From IMG/VR virus record IMGVR_UViG_3300028833_000001, positions 297,446 through 361,445 of that record: a DNA stretch of 64,000 bases; one strand, 5' to 3'. This document shows, in pieces, positions 31,677 to 59,469 of the stretch (position 1 is the stretch's first letter; each line of letters begins with the position of its first letter). Below the pieces are notes generated by a model, which was given only the letters and a program-made list of their open reading frames with translations, had not been told where the DNA came from and searched no databases. The stretch comes from a virus (taxonomy: Duplodnaviria; Heunggongvirae; Uroviricota; Caudoviricetes). Made by a program: the position numbers and the translations under genes.

Positions 31677-34748
<3,072 letters not shown>

Positions 34749-38184: not shown

Positions 38185-38868
38185 ATGAATGATTTTAGAA
38201 AATTTGCTGTTAGCAACAATGTGAATGGAAATACTCTTGATAGTTACACGAAAAAGGTTAATAGTATTATCAGTCCTACAATTATTGAAGAACGACAGCT
38301 TAATGCTGTAACAATTGATGTTTTTTCCGCGTTGATTAGAGAGAGAATTATTTTTTTAGGGACAGCTATTGATAACGATGTAGCAAATATTGTTAATTCA
38401 CAATTAATGTATTTGAATTCGCTGGATAATGAAACGCCAGTTAAACTGTTCATAAACAGTTGCGGAGGCGTAATCGACTCTGGCTTAGCAATATATGATG
38501 TCATGAACTGGGTTGATTGTGGCGTTGAGACCTATGTTATGGGTATGGCAGCATCAATGGCATCTGTGTTATCTTCCTCTGGAATGAAAGGTCATAGGTA
38601 TGCACTGAAAAACAGTAGAATTATGATTCATCAACCTATGATGGGAATTCCTCCTGGCACACAGGAATCTGATATTGCTATTGCATATAATGAAATTAGA
38701 AAAGATAAGGAATTGTTACTTGGAATTCTTGCTGAAAACTGCGGAAAAACCATAGAAGAACTTAGAGCTGACGCAGACAGAGACCATTGGCTTACTCCAA
38801 GCGAGGCGCTTCCTGGTGTTTATGGTGAATTTGGACTTATTGATGAAATTATCACCAAGAAAAAATAA
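38185..38868 (+). CDS. clpP: ATP-dependent Clp protease proteolytic subunit
   Basis: ERIIFLG, MAASMAS (Ser), MIHQP (His), DRDHW (Asp). Confidence 0.95.
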   Translation: MNDFRKFAVSNNVNGNTLDSYTKKVNSIISPTIIEERQLNAVTIDVFSALIRERIIFLGTAIDNDVANIVNSQLMYLNSLDNETPVKLFINSCGGVIDSGLAIYDVMNWVDCGVETYVMGMAASMASVLSSSGMKGHRYALKNSRIMIHQPMMGIPPGTQESDIAIAYNEIRKDKELLLGILAENCGKTIEELRADADRDHWLTPSEALPGVYGEFGLIDEIITKKK

Positions 38869-39472: not shown

Positions 39473-41092
39473 ATGATAAAAATTATTGTTGCAGTAGGTA
39501 ATTATATCCCAGAAAAGGGGTTTCCAATTGGAAAAAACGGTGGCTTGGCCTGGAATTTTCCAGAAGACCTTAAATGGTTCAGAAAAACAACTGAACACAA
39601 TATAGTTGTAATGGGCAGAAACACGTATAAATCATTCGGAGGTAAGCCATTACAGAATAGAGACAATTATATAGTTTCAAATTCAATGACCGAAATCCCA
39701 GAAGGATTTTGCGGGATTTTGCACAGCATTGATGAAATTGTTGACTTATCTAAAAACCAAATAGGAGACGTGTATATTATTGGTGGCGCAGAGTTATACA
39801 GGTCAGTTCTTGACGCTGATATTGTTGATGAAGTTTTAAACGACTTTATTGATGTTGAAGTTCCAGATGCAGACACATTTTTCCAGCCTTTGGATTTGAA
39901 TAAGTGGAAAATTGATGAAGAGGGTATAAGATTAAGCGATAAATGCACTGTCAATACATTTAAACATGCAAAATTTTTTAATGATGTTGATGAACAATAT
40001 TTGAATTTGGTGCAAGATGTTATAGTTAATGGTGAATTGAAAGAAACACGGGCTGGAATGACAAGGTCTGTTTTTGGAAAGCAACTTCGTTTCAACCTTA
40101 AAAATGGTTTGCCATTGCTAACAACAAAAAAAGTTTACACAAACGGTATCATTCATGAACTTATTTGGTTCCTTAAAGGCGATACGAATATTAAATATCT
40201 TGTTGACAATAATGTGCATATATGGGATGATGACGCATACAGATATTATCTTGAGCTTGTTGAAAAAAACAACGAAGTCTTTAAATGTGATGACACACCA
40301 TTGTTGAATGCTCATTACTTTGAGCCTATCACAAAGGAAGAGTTCTTGAAAGCTGTCATTGAAGAAAAAGACTGTTGGTTATACCTGGATAGATTGGCTG
40401 GTTTTATGTCATACTATCCAAACAACTATTATATTCATTATAAATTTGGCGACCTTGGTCCTGTTTATGGTGAACAATGGAGAAACTGGTATGGCGTTGA
40501 CCAAATAAAGACAGTTATTGAAACATTAAGAACAAATCCAGATGACAGAAGAATGATTGTCTCTGCTTGGAATGTTAAAGAATTGGATAAAATGGCTCTT
40601 CCTCCTTGTCATTACTCATTTCAATTTTATACAAAAAAAATGGATATTGTAGAAAGAATGAATTGGGCCTTAGAACATAATTTAAATTGTTGGGATGAAA
40701 AATCTTTGGATGACAATAATGTACCTTCACGGAAATTAAGTTGCCTCTGGAATCAACGTAGTGTAGATTCAATATGCGGATTGCCGTTCAATATAGCATC
40801 ATATGCAATTCTTACTTATATGATTGCACAATGCTGTAATATGAAACCAGATGAATTGATATTTAATGGTGGAGACGTTCATGTATATGAAAACCATATA
40901 GAAGCATTTACAGAACAATTATACAGAAATCCACATAAATATGCATTACCACAATTGGAGCTTAATCCAAACGTAAAAGAAATTGATGATTTTAGGGCAT
41001 ATGATATTAAAATAGTTGGATATCAATCATACCCAGCGATAAAATATCAATTAAATGTAGGCCTAAATAATAACAATGGCGAAGCTAAATAA
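39473..41092 (+). CDS. thyA: Bifunctional dihydrofolate reductase-thymidylate synthase
   Basis: DHFR: IGKNGGLAW..EDLKWF, VMGRNT, IIGGAELY, ADTFF. TS: PLLTTKK, LGPVYG.QWR, MALPPCH, QRSVD, PFNIASY. Confidence 0.95.
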   Translation: MIKIIVAVGNYIPEKGFPIGKNGGLAWNFPEDLKWFRKTTEHNIVVMGRNTYKSFGGKPLQNRDNYIVSNSMTEIPEGFCGILHSIDEIVDLSKNQIGDVYIIGGAELYRSVLDADIVDEVLNDFIDVEVPDADTFFQPLDLNKWKIDEEGIRLSDKCTVNTFKHAKFFNDVDEQYLNLVQDVIVNGELKETRAGMTRSVFGKQLRFNLKNGLPLLTTKKVYTNGIIHELIWFLKGDTNIKYLVDNNVHIWDDDAYRYYLELVEKNNEVFKCDDTPLLNAHYFEPITKEEFLKAVIEEKDCWLYLDRLAGFMSYYPNNYYIHYKFGDLGPVYGEQWRNWYGVDQIKTVIETLRTNPDDRRMIVSAWNVKELDKMALPPCHYSFQFYTKKMDIVERMNWALEHNLNCWDEKSLDDNNVPSRKLSCLWNQRSVDSICGLPFNIASYAILTYMIAQCCNMKPDELIFNGGDVHVYENHIEAFTEQLYRNPHKYALPQLELNPNVKEIDDFRAYDIKIVGYQSYPAIKYQLNVGLNNNNGEAK

Positions 41093-42434: not shown

Positions 42435-42507
42435 GGTGCCGTTAGCTCAGTGGGTAGAGCGCATGTCTGTGGAACATGAGGCGTTGGTTCAAATCCAACA
42501 CGGCACC
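42435..42507 (+). tRNA. tRNA-His(GTG)
   Basis: Cloverleaf with G-1 and C73; CATGT-CTGTGGA-ACATG. Confidence 0.95.
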
Positions 42508-42566
42508 CGAAAAAAAAAGTTTGGAAGTTTAAAAAAAGATTTGTAATCTTACAAACACAAACGAGA

Positions 42567-42577
42567 GTTCTTTGAAA
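42567..42577 (+). promoter_or_regulatory. boxA-like antitermination site
   Basis: GTTCTTTGAAA shortly after a promoter-like TTTG..TAATCTTAC. Confidence 0.5.
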
Positions 42578-42589
42578 AAATTGAAATAT

Positions 42590-43036
42590 AAAGTGATTGT
42601 GAGAATGATAGCAAAACAACTATCATGCATAGGCGAGAAATCCCTATGTAGAATCTCCTAAATTCGGTAGAATCCTTAAAGGCGTTAGCCTTCGTAAGAG
42701 AGAAAATATGTAACCTCACTAAACAATAATGTGGAAGGACTAACCGAGCGAAAATGTAATGCGGAATTTCAATAAGTTAGGAAGATATTACATAATCGTG
42801 TAGAGGCCAAACGGGAGATACCTAAGTTGGAATTTGTATAATTGAGGGATAGCGCAAGCAAGTATGTTTTCTTTTAACAGTTAACAGAACAATCAAATTA
42901 TACATCTTGCAAGAATTCCAATATGGTAAGATGGTCCAGGCCACAACAACACTACAAGCAGTGTCGAAACCAGACATAAGTACTGTTGTAACAAAGTGTT
43001 GGCTATGATAACATAGTGTGGCATCACAATTACTTT
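42590..43036 (+). ncRNA. Group I intron-like structured RNA closed by a 13-bp terminal helix
   Basis: P3 ATCTCCT/GGGAGAT, P4 TTCGGT/ACCGAG, P7 GAGGCCA/TGGTCC, P8, P9. Ends AAAGTGATTGTGA/TCACAATTACTTT. Confidence 0.75.
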
Positions 43037-43041
43037 TACTT

Positions 43042-43114
43042 GCGCCCGTAACTCAGCTGGTAGAGTACATCCCTTTTAAGGATGGAGTCGTGGGTTCGAA
43101 TCCCACCGAGCGCA
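43042..43114 (+). tRNA. tRNA-Lys(TTT)
   Basis: Cloverleaf; CATCC-CTTTTAA-GGATG. Confidence 0.93.
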
Positions 43115-43141
43115 CAATAATAAATTTAAAATTATAATAAA

Positions 43142-43452: not shown

Positions 43453-43460
43453 CAAAAAAA

Positions 43461-43476
43461 GTTCTTTGACATATTG
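43461..43476 (+). promoter_or_regulatory. boxA-like antitermination site
   Basis: GTTCTTTGACATATTG, rrn-leader-like. Confidence 0.55.
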
Positions 43477-43726: not shown

Positions 43727-44443
43727 ATGAATCAGAAAAGAGAATACGTTAGAAAAAATTTGGATATAATAAACAAAATGATAGAAAACAAACGACCTAA
43801 GTTTGAAATAGCTAGGGTTTTGGGAGTTAAATATTCCACATTAGATAAATATTTAAAAGAATTTGGTATTGATTATAAAGGAAACCCAAATAGAAAGGGA
43901 ATTCCGCATATGGAAGGAAGAATGCTAATTGAAGAATATTTAAATGGAAATAGAAACATACAAGCATCTAAACTAAGACAAAAACTAATAGAAAATGGTT
44001 TAAAAGAAGAAAAATGTGAATGCTGTGGGTTAACTGAATGGATGGGTAAAAAAATTCCGTTAGAACTTCACCATAAAAATATGAACCATAACGATAATAG
44101 TTTAGACAATCTTCAAATACTTTGTTCTAATTGTCATTCTTTAGCACATGAATATAATAATACAAAAGGTAAACCAGAAAGTTCTATTGATACTATTTTA
44201 TTAAAAAAACGTGTTAAAGAGGTTGGTCATTGCAAACAGTGCGGAAAAGAATTAACAAATAGCCAGAAAATTTATTGTTCACAAGAGTGCGCTCATTTAA
44301 ATGTTAGTAAAATACCACAAAAAAACGAATTAATTGATAAATTAAATGAGTTTAACTGGAATAAAACAAAAACTGGTAAGTATTTTGGCGTAAGTGATAA
44401 CGCAATTCGTAAATGGATTAAAAAGTACGACATAAAAAAATAA
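43727..44443 (+). CDS. HNH endonuclease with HTH and Zn-ribbon modules
   Basis: CECCG..LELHHKNMNHNDNSLDNLQILCSNCH, with N- and C-terminal HTH. Confidence 0.9.
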   Translation: MNQKREYVRKNLDIINKMIENKRPKFEIARVLGVKYSTLDKYLKEFGIDYKGNPNRKGIPHMEGRMLIEEYLNGNRNIQASKLRQKLIENGLKEEKCECCGLTEWMGKKIPLELHHKNMNHNDNSLDNLQILCSNCHSLAHEYNNTKGKPESSIDTILLKKRVKEVGHCKQCGKELTNSQKIYCSQECAHLNVSKIPQKNELIDKLNEFNWNKTKTGKYFGVSDNAIRKWIKKYDIKK

Positions 44444-44623: not shown

Positions 44624-44769
44624 GCTCCTATAGTTCAATGGACAGAACAGAAGTTTCCTATACAAGAGTAAACTTGTTTAAATCATTTCTATGTGAAATT
44701 GGTTTTATTGGGTTCGAGTCCCACACATAGAACAAACTTCAAATCTTGGTTCGAATCCAAGTAGGAGTA
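44624..44769 (+). tRNA. tRNA-Arg(CCT) interrupted by a 74-nt insertion (44660-44733)
   Basis: Removing the insert gives GAAGT-TTCCTAA-ACTTC with normal D, T and acceptor arms. Confidence 0.85.
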
Positions 44770-44788
44770 CTAAACACATAACATATAT

Positions 44789-46016: not shown

Positions 46017-46086
46017 CGGGATGTAGTTTAATGTTAAAATAATTGTGCTTAGGACAGTGATATAGGTGCGAATCCTATCATCTCGG
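46017..46086 (+). pseudogene. Degenerate duplicate of the adjacent interrupted tRNA-Pro
   Basis: Shares its 5' end, T arm and trailer CAAATATTTCATAT with 46120-46252. Lacks G18G19, U33 and the TTC T-loop. Confidence 0.65.
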
Positions 46087-46119
46087 CAAATATTTCATAT
46101 AGTATAAACATAATAGCAT

Positions 46120-46562: not shown

Positions 46563-46743
46563 TGCGGGATGGAGCAGAGGTCAGCTCGTCAGGCTCAATA
46601 CAGAGTGGTTTTCTGAAAAAAACTGTTGATGCCAATTGTTCAAGAGAAGAGCCGATACACAATCAAATTGTGTGTCGAGGCTGGTTCGAGTCCAGCTGGC
46701 GTCGCTAACCTGAAGGTCGGGGGTTCGAATCCCTCTCCCGCTA
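46563..46743 (+). tRNA. Initiator tRNA-fMet(CAT) interrupted inside the anticodon by a 108-nt insertion (46598-46705)
   Basis: 1:72 mismatch and A11-U24. Removing the insert gives TCAGG-CTCATAA-CCTGA. Confidence 0.88.
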
Positions 46744-46938
46744 CAAATCCAGGTGCATAACGATTTGAAACCGTAGTGGGTGTTAAAACCACAGCCTGGA
46801 ATAATAAGATTGCAGCAATACTAGTCAGGCTGGTCTTTCCGTGAAAGTCGGACGTATTACCATGCAACGATAGCGTTGATACCTGTATAATGGCAGGTGT
46901 AGCAAATGGCCCGTCAGGTCGCTACTGACGGTTTTTAT

Positions 46939-48310: not shown

Positions 48311-48378
48311 CTTAAAATAAAATTTATCCCGAAACGTGTTTTTAGCTTTTTATGACTATTTATAAAAAAAATAGTAAT

Positions 48379-49083
48379 ATGAATAATTTTGAAAATTGCA
48401 AATCGTTAAATGACATTGCTAGGCAAGAATTTGGAAAAGCAAACTATACTAATCGTGAGAAAGCTAAAAAACTATTATTTGAACACGGAATAGATTGGTT
48501 AGATTGGCTAGAATCTATTAAAATTTCTAATAAAAAGTTTTGTCTTGTTTGTGGTAAAGAATTAAGAAATGGTCAAACAAAATTTTGCAGCCATTCATGT
48601 TCTGCTGGATATAACAATAAGTTTCGAAAAACATATAAAGATAATGAAAGCCGAGAACATCATGAAAAAATTACCAAAAGTGACAAATTCTGTTTGTATT
48701 GTGGCGCAAAATTAACAAATCAACAAAAATTATTTTGTAATAATAAATGTCAACAAGATTTCAAGTATAAAGAATATATAGACCGATGGATAAATGGTGA
48801 TGAAAATGGTTTAAAGGGCCAGTATTCTTTATCAAGGCACATCAGGCGATTTTTATTGGAAAAAACAAATTGTAAATGTGAAAAATGTGGCTGGGGAGAA
48901 AAAAATCCATATACAAACACAATCCCATTAGAAATACATCATATTGATGGTGATTATACAAATAACAAGGAAGAGAATCTTCAGGTTTTGTGTCCAAATT
49001 GTCATTCTTTAACAGAAACACACAAATCACATAATAAGAACGGAAGACAAGGTAGAAGAAAATATTATAAAAAAACAGAATAA
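48379..49083 (+). CDS. HNH endonuclease with two CxxC..FCxxxC Zn modules
   Basis: CEKCG..LEIHHIDGDYTNNKEENLQVLCPNCH. Start placed at MNNFE after ACTATTTAT (48355-48363). Confidence 0.9.
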   Translation: MNNFENCKSLNDIARQEFGKANYTNREKAKKLLFEHGIDWLDWLESIKISNKKFCLVCGKELRNGQTKFCSHSCSAGYNNKFRKTYKDNESREHHEKITKSDKFCLYCGAKLTNQQKLFCNNKCQQDFKYKEYIDRWINGDENGLKGQYSLSRHIRRFLLEKTNCKCEKCGWGEKNPYTNTIPLEIHHIDGDYTNNKEENLQVLCPNCHSLTETHKSHNKNGRQGRRKYYKKTE

Positions 49084-57582: not shown

Positions 57583-59469
57583 ATGAGTAAAATTATAGGT
57601 TTGGATTTGGGTTCAACTTTGAGTGAAGTTGCGGTAATGGAAGGCGGTCAACCGACAATTTTAATTAATGAAGAAGGTAGTCGCACAACTCCTTCTGTAA
57701 TTTCGTTCAGTGAAAATGGAGAGCGGAAAGTTGGTGCGGCAGCTAAAAGACAAGCAATTACAAACCCAAAGGGAACTGTTGTTCTTATTAAGCGTTTTAT
57801 GGGTGGGACTTATGATGAAATTAAAGACAACATCACACATGTACAGTATGATGTTGACAATGTTGATGGATATCCGAGAGTTAAAATTGGTGATAGGCAT
57901 TATTCTCCAGAGGAATTGTCAGCCATGATTCTTACAAAGTTGAAACAAACAGCAGAAAACTCTTTAGGGGAAGAAGTAAAGGATGCGGTTATTACAGTTC
58001 CTGCTTATTTTAATGATGCGCAAAGAGAAGCAACAAAGCGTGCAGGTGAAATAGCTGGGCTAAATGTGAGAAGAATTGTAGCAGAGCCAACCGCCGCCAT
58101 TCTTTCCTCAAATATTGACATGAAAAAGGGAGGAAAGTACCTAGTTGTTGACTATGGTGGCAGCACTCTTGATTTTTCAGTTGCAGACATCTCAGATGGT
58201 GTTGTTGAAATTTTAGCCTCAAATGGTGATGTGTATTGTGGTGGTAGTGACCTCGACAAATTGGTTGCTGACTATGTTGTGTCTGAATTTAATAAATCCG
58301 ACGGAGTTGATTTGTCTAAGGATTCTATGGCTATGCAGCGTGTTTATGATGCGGCTGAAAAGGCAAAGATGGAGTTGTCGAACACTATGAACACAGAGAT
58401 TAATTTGCCATATATTACAGCTGTTGACGGCGCACCTAAACATTTGGCAATTTCATTGAGCAGGGCAAAATTCGAATCACTTATTGATAAAGAAATTGCG
58501 AAGGTTATCAATCTTGGCAAAGAAGCTGTTAATAAGGCGAAGATTACAAATAATGACCTTGACGGTGTGCTTCTTGTCGGTGGTTCAACAAGAATCCCGA
58601 AGGTACAGGATGAACTTACAAAAGCTTTTGGAAAACCGTTGTTGAAGAATATCAATCCTGATGAAGCAGTCGCTCTTGGCGCAGCTGTTCAAGCAGCAAT
58701 TCTTAGCGGAGATAAAAATGATATTGTTTTGCTTGATGTTACTCCATTGAATCTTGGTATTGATACAATGGGTGGTGTAATGGCAAATATTGTTGAAGCT
58801 AATACTACAATTCCATGTAAAAAAAGTCAGATTTTCACAACAGCAGAAGATAATCAGCCAGCTGTAACTATTGTTGTAGCACAAGGCAATAGACCGTTGA
58901 CACGTGATAATAAGCAAATCGGTGTGTTTACTCTTGACGGTATTCTGCCAGCAAGACGTGGAGTTCCTCAAATTGAAGTCACATTCGACATTGATTCAAA
59001 CGGTATCTTGTCCGTGTCGGCTAAGGATACTGGTACGAATAAAGAGCAGCATATCACGATTGAGTCATCATCATCATTAACTGACGAGGATATTGAAAGA
59101 ATGAGAAAAGAGGCCGAAGAGCATGCTGAGGAAGACAAGAAAACAGCTGAAAATATGGCAACAATAAATATGGCCGATTCATTATCATTTAGTATTGAAA
59201 AATCTATAGATGAAATGGGTGACAAAATTACAGAAGATGAAAAAACAAAATTGACTGAAAAAATAGAAAAACTTCGTGAAGTTGTTAAAGCCAAAGATGT
59301 TGAAAACGTTAAAGCATCTCAAAAAGAGTTGCTAGATATTTGGAACCCTATAGCTGAGAGACTTTATAAGTCAGATAGCGCATCAACATCGACTAATTCT
59401 ACTGATTCGCCTTTTGGTGATTTTAGTAAACAAAATCCGTTTGGCGGTGATAATATATTTACGAAATAA
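57583..59469 (+). CDS. dnaK: Hsp70 chaperone DnaK
   Basis: [51 protein letters not shown] linker, [10 protein letters not shown]. Confidence 0.96.

Follow-up and report, generated by a model that had tools for sequence, protein, structure and literature searches.

An exon-less group I intron relative at the head of a tRNA gene cluster in a huge rumen phage

Group I introns are thought to persist through clean splicing and spread by homing. A copy that has neither a host gene nor splice sites can do neither, and the locus described here, a group I fold standing between two intact tRNA genes, raises the question of where such a copy comes from and whether it still has a job.

Setting and fold of the element

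The DNA comes from a huge (giant) rumen phage whose tRNA gene cluster is headed by an RNA element of about 450 nt. The stretch analyzed (64,000 nt; the window) is the final 64 kb of a 361,445-bp virus record rated complete by CheckV, and the element occupies positions 42590-43036 of it. As the first-pass annotation of the window had stated, no ORF or tRNA is interrupted: intact tRNA genes flank the element on the + strand, tRNA-His(GUG) on the 5' side (42436..42508, not an exon) and tRNA-Lys(UUU) directly 3' (43042..43115), and an ORF check of the element region found no notable ORF overlapping 42590-43036. The two genes stand at the head of an array of 26-29 tRNA genes, every one of them on the + strand. 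A scan for sigma-70 promoters and terminators around the element gave nothing on the + strand above the shuffled background. Upstream of the element, the + strand carries a leader motif, AGTTCTTTGAAAAAATTGAAA (42566..42585), which resembles rrn boxA and may function as one; a related motif recurs at 43459-43472.

Several other features of this region and of similar phage arrays were recorded. BoxA-like motifs (GTTCTTTGAAAA, GTTCTTTGACA, GCTCTTTGACAA) are found within phage tRNA arrays, at the two window positions just given and at ~17305-17320 of contig L005. The window array includes a tRNA with anticodon UUA (46017-46087), which would decode the UAA stop, and two stand-alone HNH endonuclease ORFs (43727-44443 and 48352-49083) with helix-turn-helix or zinc-ribbon domains. 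Elsewhere in the window are genes for a 1023-aa collagen-repeat protein (31677-34748, in a GC-rich patch), ClpP (38185-38868), a fused DHFR-thymidylate synthase (39473-41092) and Hsp70 (57583-59469). A permuted tmRNA (Rfam RF04321, 65 bits) lies at 6163-6355 of L207, inside the tRNA array of a 302-kb phage.

The first-pass annotation had described an ordered group I core sealed by a terminal helix, and every helix it named was recovered at its coordinates. The ends pair over 13 bp (42590..42602 with 43024-43036) with probabilities of 0.70-1.0, and the minimum-free-energy fold of the element has a z-score of -3.7 against shuffles. Next comes a hairpin at the position of P1 (42605..42626; AUGAUAG/CUAUCAU) with an A-U pair where the U·G splice-site wobble is expected. 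P2 (42627..42649) has a bulged C and a GAAA tetraloop (42637-42640), and 8 of its 9 pairs covary across the family described below. The 5' strand of P3 (42653..42659) pairs with 42813-42819 in a pseudoknot with P7; one of its pairs is CG in 25 cases and UA in 21. By family comparison, 42660..42748 holds J3/4 (AAA), P4 (42663-68 / 42743-48), J4/5, P5 (42673-77 / 42735-39, with a CC:GG receptor) and the P5 extension, and it is followed by the P6 stem-loop (42754..42793; strands 42754-60 / 42787-93), assigned from sequence and the minimum-free-energy fold.

The classical R element (42794..42819) comprises J6/7, the P7 5' strand G-A-GGCCA (42803-09) and the P3 3' strand. P8 (42820-34 / 42914-27) and its variable extension cover 42820..42927, and 99-100% of the family's cells are paired there; at its base we read from the letters an 11-nt GAAA-tetraloop receptor (CCUAAG 42821-26 / UAUGG 42922-26). 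The classical S element (42928..42939) consists of J8/7 (AAGA), the P7 3' strand UGGUCC (42932-37) and J7/9 (AG). P9.0 (42940-45 / 43017-22) encloses the P9 domain (42940..43022), in which the P9 hairpin (43003-43016) has an AUAA loop (43008-11) where relatives have a GNRA loop, GUAA. The 3' tail (43023..43041) runs to the 5' end of tRNA-Lys, holds the second strand of the closing helix and lacks omega-G. The absence of a U·G pair in the P1-position hairpin, the A that follows P9.0 in place of omega-G and the short J8/7 had all been noted in the first-pass annotation.

The core architecture of a group I RNA is thus present: the P3/P7 pseudoknot, P4-P6, the P3-P8-P9 domains and the R and S elements. 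Judged by its sequence, the guanosine site appears to be kept (a P7 G-C pair and a bulged A; 42803-42805 with 42936-42937). Of the features of IC3 introns, the L2 tetraloop and the matching P8 receptor are both found in the window copy; it lies in no tRNA anticodon loop, and its L9-P5 docking pair is broken on the L9 side.

A family of IC3-like introns in phage tRNA genes

Relatives of the neighboring DHFR-thymidylate synthase gene served as the starting set and were searched with nhmmer. The first matches were L002/L003, which carry the same RNA, and L005, which has two tandem copies, and their conserved blocks, GUGUAGAGACUAnAC and AAGnnAUAGUCC, match the R and S elements that are classical for group I introns. 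Together with nhmmer, a family HMM and the scanning of viral contigs for sequence patterns let us identify ~54 distinct, full-length homologues on huge-phage contigs. In the genome collection there were four loci, namely two tRNA-embedded copies, one member cut at the end of its locus and a fourth without an nhmmer match. Other probes returned nothing: BLAST of the element and of a 12-kb flank against the phage collection gave no match, a neighboring 206-aa ORF tried as a marker had no relatives, and an exact 22-mer from the S block had no match.

According to ARAGORN (introns allowed), 37 of the ~54 members sit in anticodon loops of phage tRNA genes, with isotypes Arg, Leu, Ser, Thr, Gln, Lys, Met, Ile, Tyr, Pro, Phe and suppressor (several isotypes being assigned only approximately). 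Most of the members read have a 5' exon with a terminal U, frequently as CUU, which gives a U(-1)·G pairing with the guide; in the embedded members read, the guide (GAG, GGA or GUG) stands immediately 5' of UGCA-P2, and the intron ends in ...GUGGYANG with a terminal omega-G. The intron of L182, for instance, splits a tRNA-Leu(UAA) between U34 and A35, the classical cyanobacterial site, with P1 CUU/GAG, and that of L200 holds an HNH endonuclease ORF in its P1 loop. The 11-nt GAAA receptor (CCUAAG/UAUGG) at the base of P8, facing the GAAA loop of L2, is found family-wide. L9 and P5 switch jointly between two subclades, GAAA going with a CUAAG/UAUG P5 (11-nt type) and GUAA with a CC:GG P5; we note this switch (alignment L9 columns 946-949) as a clear case of tertiary-contact covariation. 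The layout of the family is one that we take to be IC3 (Azoarcus-type). The family consists of IC3-like group I introns of tRNA genes, and membership in it explains the origin of the element.

In an alignment of 48 homologues, 87% of the cells in the 56 pairs of the tested structure, which was taken from the window copy itself, are standard pairs, and shifting the partner by 1-3 columns lowers this to 33-42%. Changes on both sides occur in 36 of the 56 pairs, a number reached by 0 of 500 shuffles, and this family covariation bears out the ordered core proposed at first. A search with the group I model RF00028, which had been suggested as a check, was run and is silent: the element has no match in Rfam (group I, ROOL, GOLLD or others) at E up to 10. 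This is uninformative about the element because RF00028 misses its tRNA-embedded relatives as well (six members tried, unmatched at E up to 0.1). A literature search of incomplete coverage turned up no paper about group I introns in phage tRNA genes or about group I RNAs that lack exons.

Some members of the family stand apart. In the tRNA-Arg(ACG) introns of L185, L196, L198 and L101 the 5' exon apparently ends in C rather than U, and those of L185, L196 and L198 carry the boxA-like motif in their P1 loops. The C(-1) matches the C(-1) type among the 21 bacterial tRNA-intron cases that have been mapped (Williams 2020, bioRxiv 10.1101/2020.01.27.920355). Suppressor-type tRNAs are interrupted by family introns in L203 and L205. 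L186 (640-1489) is a tRNA-flanked intron with a small ORF in P9, the short J8/7 AAUGU also seen in exon-less copies and no evident guide G, and it may represent an intermediate stage of inactivation. L210 (CACYXI010000001.1, 286,648 bp), filed as an uncultured Bacteroidales MAG, has a tRNA-Leu(UAA) split by a family intron and is possibly a huge phage whose genome was placed in a bacterial bin.

A second kind of insert is found in the same arrays. Inserts of 74-108 nt occupy anticodon loops of tRNA genes in the window (44624-44770, 46563-46744), in L002 (4548-4695), in L207 (38-195, 1848-2021) and in L071, L078 and L079. They start with (A)AUACAG or AUACAAGAG, often followed by GUAA, and those read end in C; some hold tRNA-like T arms, and one insert of L207 scores as a tRNA alone. 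These short inserts are a class distinct from the group I introns and recur in several huge phages, among which L071, L078 and L079 have the inserts and no exon-less copy.

The exon-less copies compared with embedded introns

Using 36 embedded introns as the reference, we found 109 alignment columns that are at least 90% conserved. The window copy deviates at 7 of them, the embedded introns at a median of 3 (range 0-11). Two of the seven deviations, in P8 and P9.0, exchange one base pair for another and are thereby compensated. The remaining five are uncompensated, and none of these falls in a helix; they are in unpaired joints and loops that handle P1 or omega-G. The guide G has become U at 42623, so that the P1-position hairpin has A-U and not U·G; J4/5 has G -> A at 42669; J5/4 has lost a single U after 42742; J8/7 (42928-31) is AAGA, compared with 7 nt in embedded relatives; and L9 has changed from GUAA to AUAA at 43008, with the CC:GG receptor of P5 retained. 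Omega-G is absent, AUC standing at the columns where embedded relatives show AGG, and 43023-43041, up to tRNA-Lys position +1, contains no G. Every one of the 56 scaffold pairs, in a structure derived from the window copy itself, is standard in that copy. The changes in guide, omega-G and joints make the canonical mechanism impossible for either splicing step, with a scaffold that looks on a par with working relatives; the element is unable to self-splice by the standard mechanism.

Exon-less copies are known to us from three phage lineages, four copies in all: the window, L002/L003, and L178/L207 with two copies (L178a and L178b). They were retrieved by patterns demanding intact P3-P4 or R blocks, so the set is biased to preserved scaffolds; a pattern of leader plus P2, with a 19-mer from the promoter region, returned only the same three contigs from viral and metagenome contigs. 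The guide G and omega-G are missing from all four copies, each of which has the boxA-like leader AGTTCTTTGAAAAAAT(T)GAAA directly 5'. J8/7 is short in all of them (AAUGU in L002 and L178, AAGA in the window), apparently as the result of two independent shortenings. All four retain the GAAA loop of L2 and the 11-nt receptor of P8, L002 with one change in the receptor (G -> A, by which a G·U wobble becomes A-U).

Other defects differ among the copies. L002 has lost the P9 hairpin; L178a, with P7 and pairs of P8 broken, is visibly decaying; and L178b keeps 52 of the 56 scaffold pairs. In L002, L178a and L178b alike, the P7 residue corresponding to Tetrahymena C312 has changed from C to A, and the guanosine pocket of P7 is damaged in these three of the four copies, which leaves the GTP-binding RNA put forward in the first-pass annotation unsupported; the idea of a GTP sensor was rejected because the pocket is unconserved among exon-less copies. 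A search for homologues with closed ends, also suggested there, gave a divided answer. L002 has a closing helix of other sequence and register than that of the window, both with probability near 1, and for the L178 copies none is predicted, so we rejected the closing helix as a common hallmark.

In their subclade, the window (0.70) and L002 (0.56) have the longest terminal branches, the others ranging over 0.07-0.46; the family tree is too weakly resolved to decide whether the exon-less copies arose once. Flanking sequences in the window and L002 look roughly 90-96% identical by eye, and the interior is 72% identical, with unalignable segments in addition. Hsp70 of the 361-kb and 302-kb phages is 74% identical, and in both its gene follows the tRNA array at a comparable distance; neither phage has an embedded family copy able to serve as a repair template. 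The collagen-repeat ORF, tried as a marker of phage relatedness, was uninformative. The P5 extension of the window copy differs at only 2 of ~68 positions from that of the tRNA-Leu(UAA) intron of L182 (BLAST identity 84% over a wider 222-nt piece), which is carried by an unrelated 174-kb phage with no Hsp70 homologue, and its P7 variant GGCCA/UGGUC is common to three tRNA-embedded introns (L172, L187 and L060b). The shared extension and P7 variant point to module exchange with working introns.

RNA libraries that several studies made from the rumen of sheep and cattle contain sequences of the family at high depth. These data are contigs, which show neither ends, strand nor level, and DNA may occur in RNA libraries. 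A 447-nt contig matches 42300-42654 with zero mismatches, and one bovine rumen RNA contig extends to 43027, into the 3' junction specific to the exon-less form. In run X3, cover is low over 42958-43051; we did not count cover differences in contigs as evidence. RNA contigs of runs X3 and X6 join ...GUGGCA-AG to the 5' start of the intron (window 43023 back to 42650 / 42625), as expected of full-length circles of excised relatives, though tandem DNA copies might also give such joins.

Remnant or reused scaffold

From its anatomy and ancestry, the element is very probably an orphaned, splicing-dead member of the phage tRNA-intron family. It would descend from IC3-like group I introns in tRNA anticodon loops of huge rumen phages and would have lost its tRNA exons and both reactive sites. 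The RNA is predicted to fold with the P3/P7 pseudoknot and P4-P6, with the GAAA of L2 docked in the 11-nt receptor of P8 and with its ends in the 13-bp helix. Co-transcription with the neighboring tRNAs is probable because the stretch is tRNA-dense and has no predicted terminator on the + strand. Ordinary tRNA processing on both sides would probably release the element, and a cut by RNase P at the 5' end of tRNA-Lys would fix its 3' end. The first-pass annotation had called it a domesticated stand-alone group I derivative, of which the stand-alone part (no exons or splice sites, sealed ends) holds. Domestication is another matter: the intact scaffold and the confinement of changes to substrate-handling joints speak for it, and the differing defects among copies, the long branches of the window and L002 and the module swaps with working introns speak against it.

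That the element is a neutral remnant without function is a reading to which we give a little less than an even chance. The cost of keeping it would be low because it interrupts nothing, and its good preservation would be explained by a loss of no great age and by continuing module exchange with working introns of co-infecting phages. The presence of the form in only three lineages agrees with this, as do the differing defects, the long branches and the modules shared with L182 and the P7-variant introns. A remnant sits less well with 56 intact pairs out of 56, with uncompensated changes that all fall outside helices and with a J8/7 shortened twice, or with a form found in phages whose Hsp70 is 74% identical, under a common leader motif and with no repair template. 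The closing helix, too, differs between the window and L002 yet pairs in both.

With the same ancestry, the scaffold could instead have found a second use in the tRNA operon as a structured RNA without catalysis, its catalytic apparatus having decayed or been selected against; we regard this as a serious possibility that falls short of being probable. Such an RNA, following the boxA-like motif, could form a stable leader domain that serves to insulate or organize the long structured transcript, to withstand nucleases or to bind a protein of the phage or its host. What argues for it is a scaffold fully paired with compensatory changes, in which changes at conserved sites cluster in the guide, J4/5, J5/4, J8/7, L9 and omega-G, together with the retention of the L2 loop and its P8 receptor in every exon-less copy. 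The form is also retained in related huge phages that have no embedded copy, the 302-kb phage keeps two copies, helices of unlike sequence seal the ends in the window and in L002, the leader motif is conserved before each copy, and the bovine rumen RNA contig reaches the exon-less 3' junction at 43027. Against this, the sequence names no function, the copies differ in their defects (L178a is in open decay) and those of L178 have no predicted closing helix. Four copies in three lineages are too few for a test of constraint within the clade, the search patterns favor well-preserved scaffolds, and the RNA contigs show neither ends nor levels and may derive from DNA in the libraries. Taking this reading further, a huge rumen phage lineage would have turned a tRNA intron into a free-standing, catalytically disabled scaffold kept by selection for its fold, which we consider conceivable but somewhat doubtful. 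With a boxA-like leader and a place at the start of the tRNA operon, the scaffold might then be a structural or protein-binding module for tRNA expression or processing, a role we propose only tentatively.

A working ribozyme with a non-standard reaction is improbable. Candidate reactions are guanosine-dependent or hydrolytic cleavage of the 3' tail, with the closing helix as an analogue of P1 (U43031·G42595), or a trans reaction with the insert-bearing pre-tRNAs as substrates, and the trans-acting ribozyme had been among the roles suggested at first. The window copy does keep the guanosine-binding pair of P7, the bulged A and the flanking G-C, its closing helix has one G·U with the U on the strand of the 3' tail, and insert-bearing tRNAs are in the same array. 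However, the damage sits in J8/7, J4/5 and J5/4, which dock and recognize P1; L002 and L178 do not conserve the G·U of the closing helix, and L002, L178a and L178b all have a damaged P7 pocket. A trans reaction in particular finds no free guide sequence, and the short inserts start with AUACAG, end in C (those read) and are also present in L071, L078 and L079, phages with no exon-less copy. A split intron, to which the short inserts would contribute P1 and omega-G and the element the core, was likewise dropped: the inserts read end in C, and they are present elsewhere without the element.

Least credible is an ordinary self-splicing intron in an overlooked host RNA: the flanks do pair together like the anticodon-stem halves around embedded introns, but there are no flanking tRNA halves, the 3' strand of the P1-position hairpin has no G and therefore no possible U·G, no G occurs from P9.0 to tRNA-Lys position +1, and homology puts U in the guide-G column and AUC in the AGG (omega-G) columns.

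The tetraloop-receptor clamps L2-P8 and L9-P5 are presumably common to the Azoarcus structure and the family of the element. IC3 tRNA introns (tRNA-Leu(UAA) of cyanobacteria and plastids, tRNA-Ile(CAU) of Azoarcus and the cases of Williams 2020) have the same core topology as the element; among the embedded relatives, L182 is at the classical U34/A35 site and some are of the C(-1) type. Unlike these introns, the window copy has no tRNA exons, U·G or omega-G, its J8/7 is 4 nt long, its L9 is broken and its ends are sealed over 13 bp; moreover, the family is carried by phages and missed by RF00028.

The lariat-capping ribozyme GIR1, from the twin-ribozyme introns of Didymium and Naegleria, is a non-splicing group I fold with no normal P1 and with paired 5' and 3' regions. 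The element is similar in its group I-derived fold, the loss of splicing, the lack of a normal P1 and the paired ends. GIR1 keeps omega-G, a three-nucleotide lariat fold and its active site, performs a branching reaction and lies inside an intron upstream of a homing-endonuclease mRNA; the element shows none of these features: it has no omega-G, tRNA-Lys lies directly 3' of it, and it has no Rfam match. In the homing cycle reportedly modeled by Goddard and Burt, introns are gained, decay and are lost, and a mobile family with HNH genes in some members (L200) and inactive copies with differing defects resembles such a cycle. Decaying introns normally remain in the host gene and must splice until precise loss, whereas here the host gene is gone and the intron remains. 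The c-di-GMP-controlled group I ribozyme that Lee et al. are said to have described in 2010 in a 5' leader of Clostridioides difficile is active and keeps its splice sites; the element shares with it a group I fold in a non-coding leader and, unlike it, has no evident ligand-sensing domain. ROOL and GOLLD, large phage ncRNAs found near tRNAs, gave no Rfam match with the element at E up to 10.

As the large family of phage tRNA introns is invisible to the standard Rfam model, the tRNA sets of phages are under-annotated. As a remnant, the element would illustrate a seldom observed end point of the intron life cycle, an intron outliving its lost host gene, and also the swapping of modules between unrelated phages. 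If instead selection maintains the fold, the element would be a natural case of a ribozyme scaffold reused without catalysis, among the little-understood non-tRNA RNAs of huge-phage arrays; it would then be the second group I fold in nature to have taken on a new job, after GIR1, and the first that is non-catalytic.
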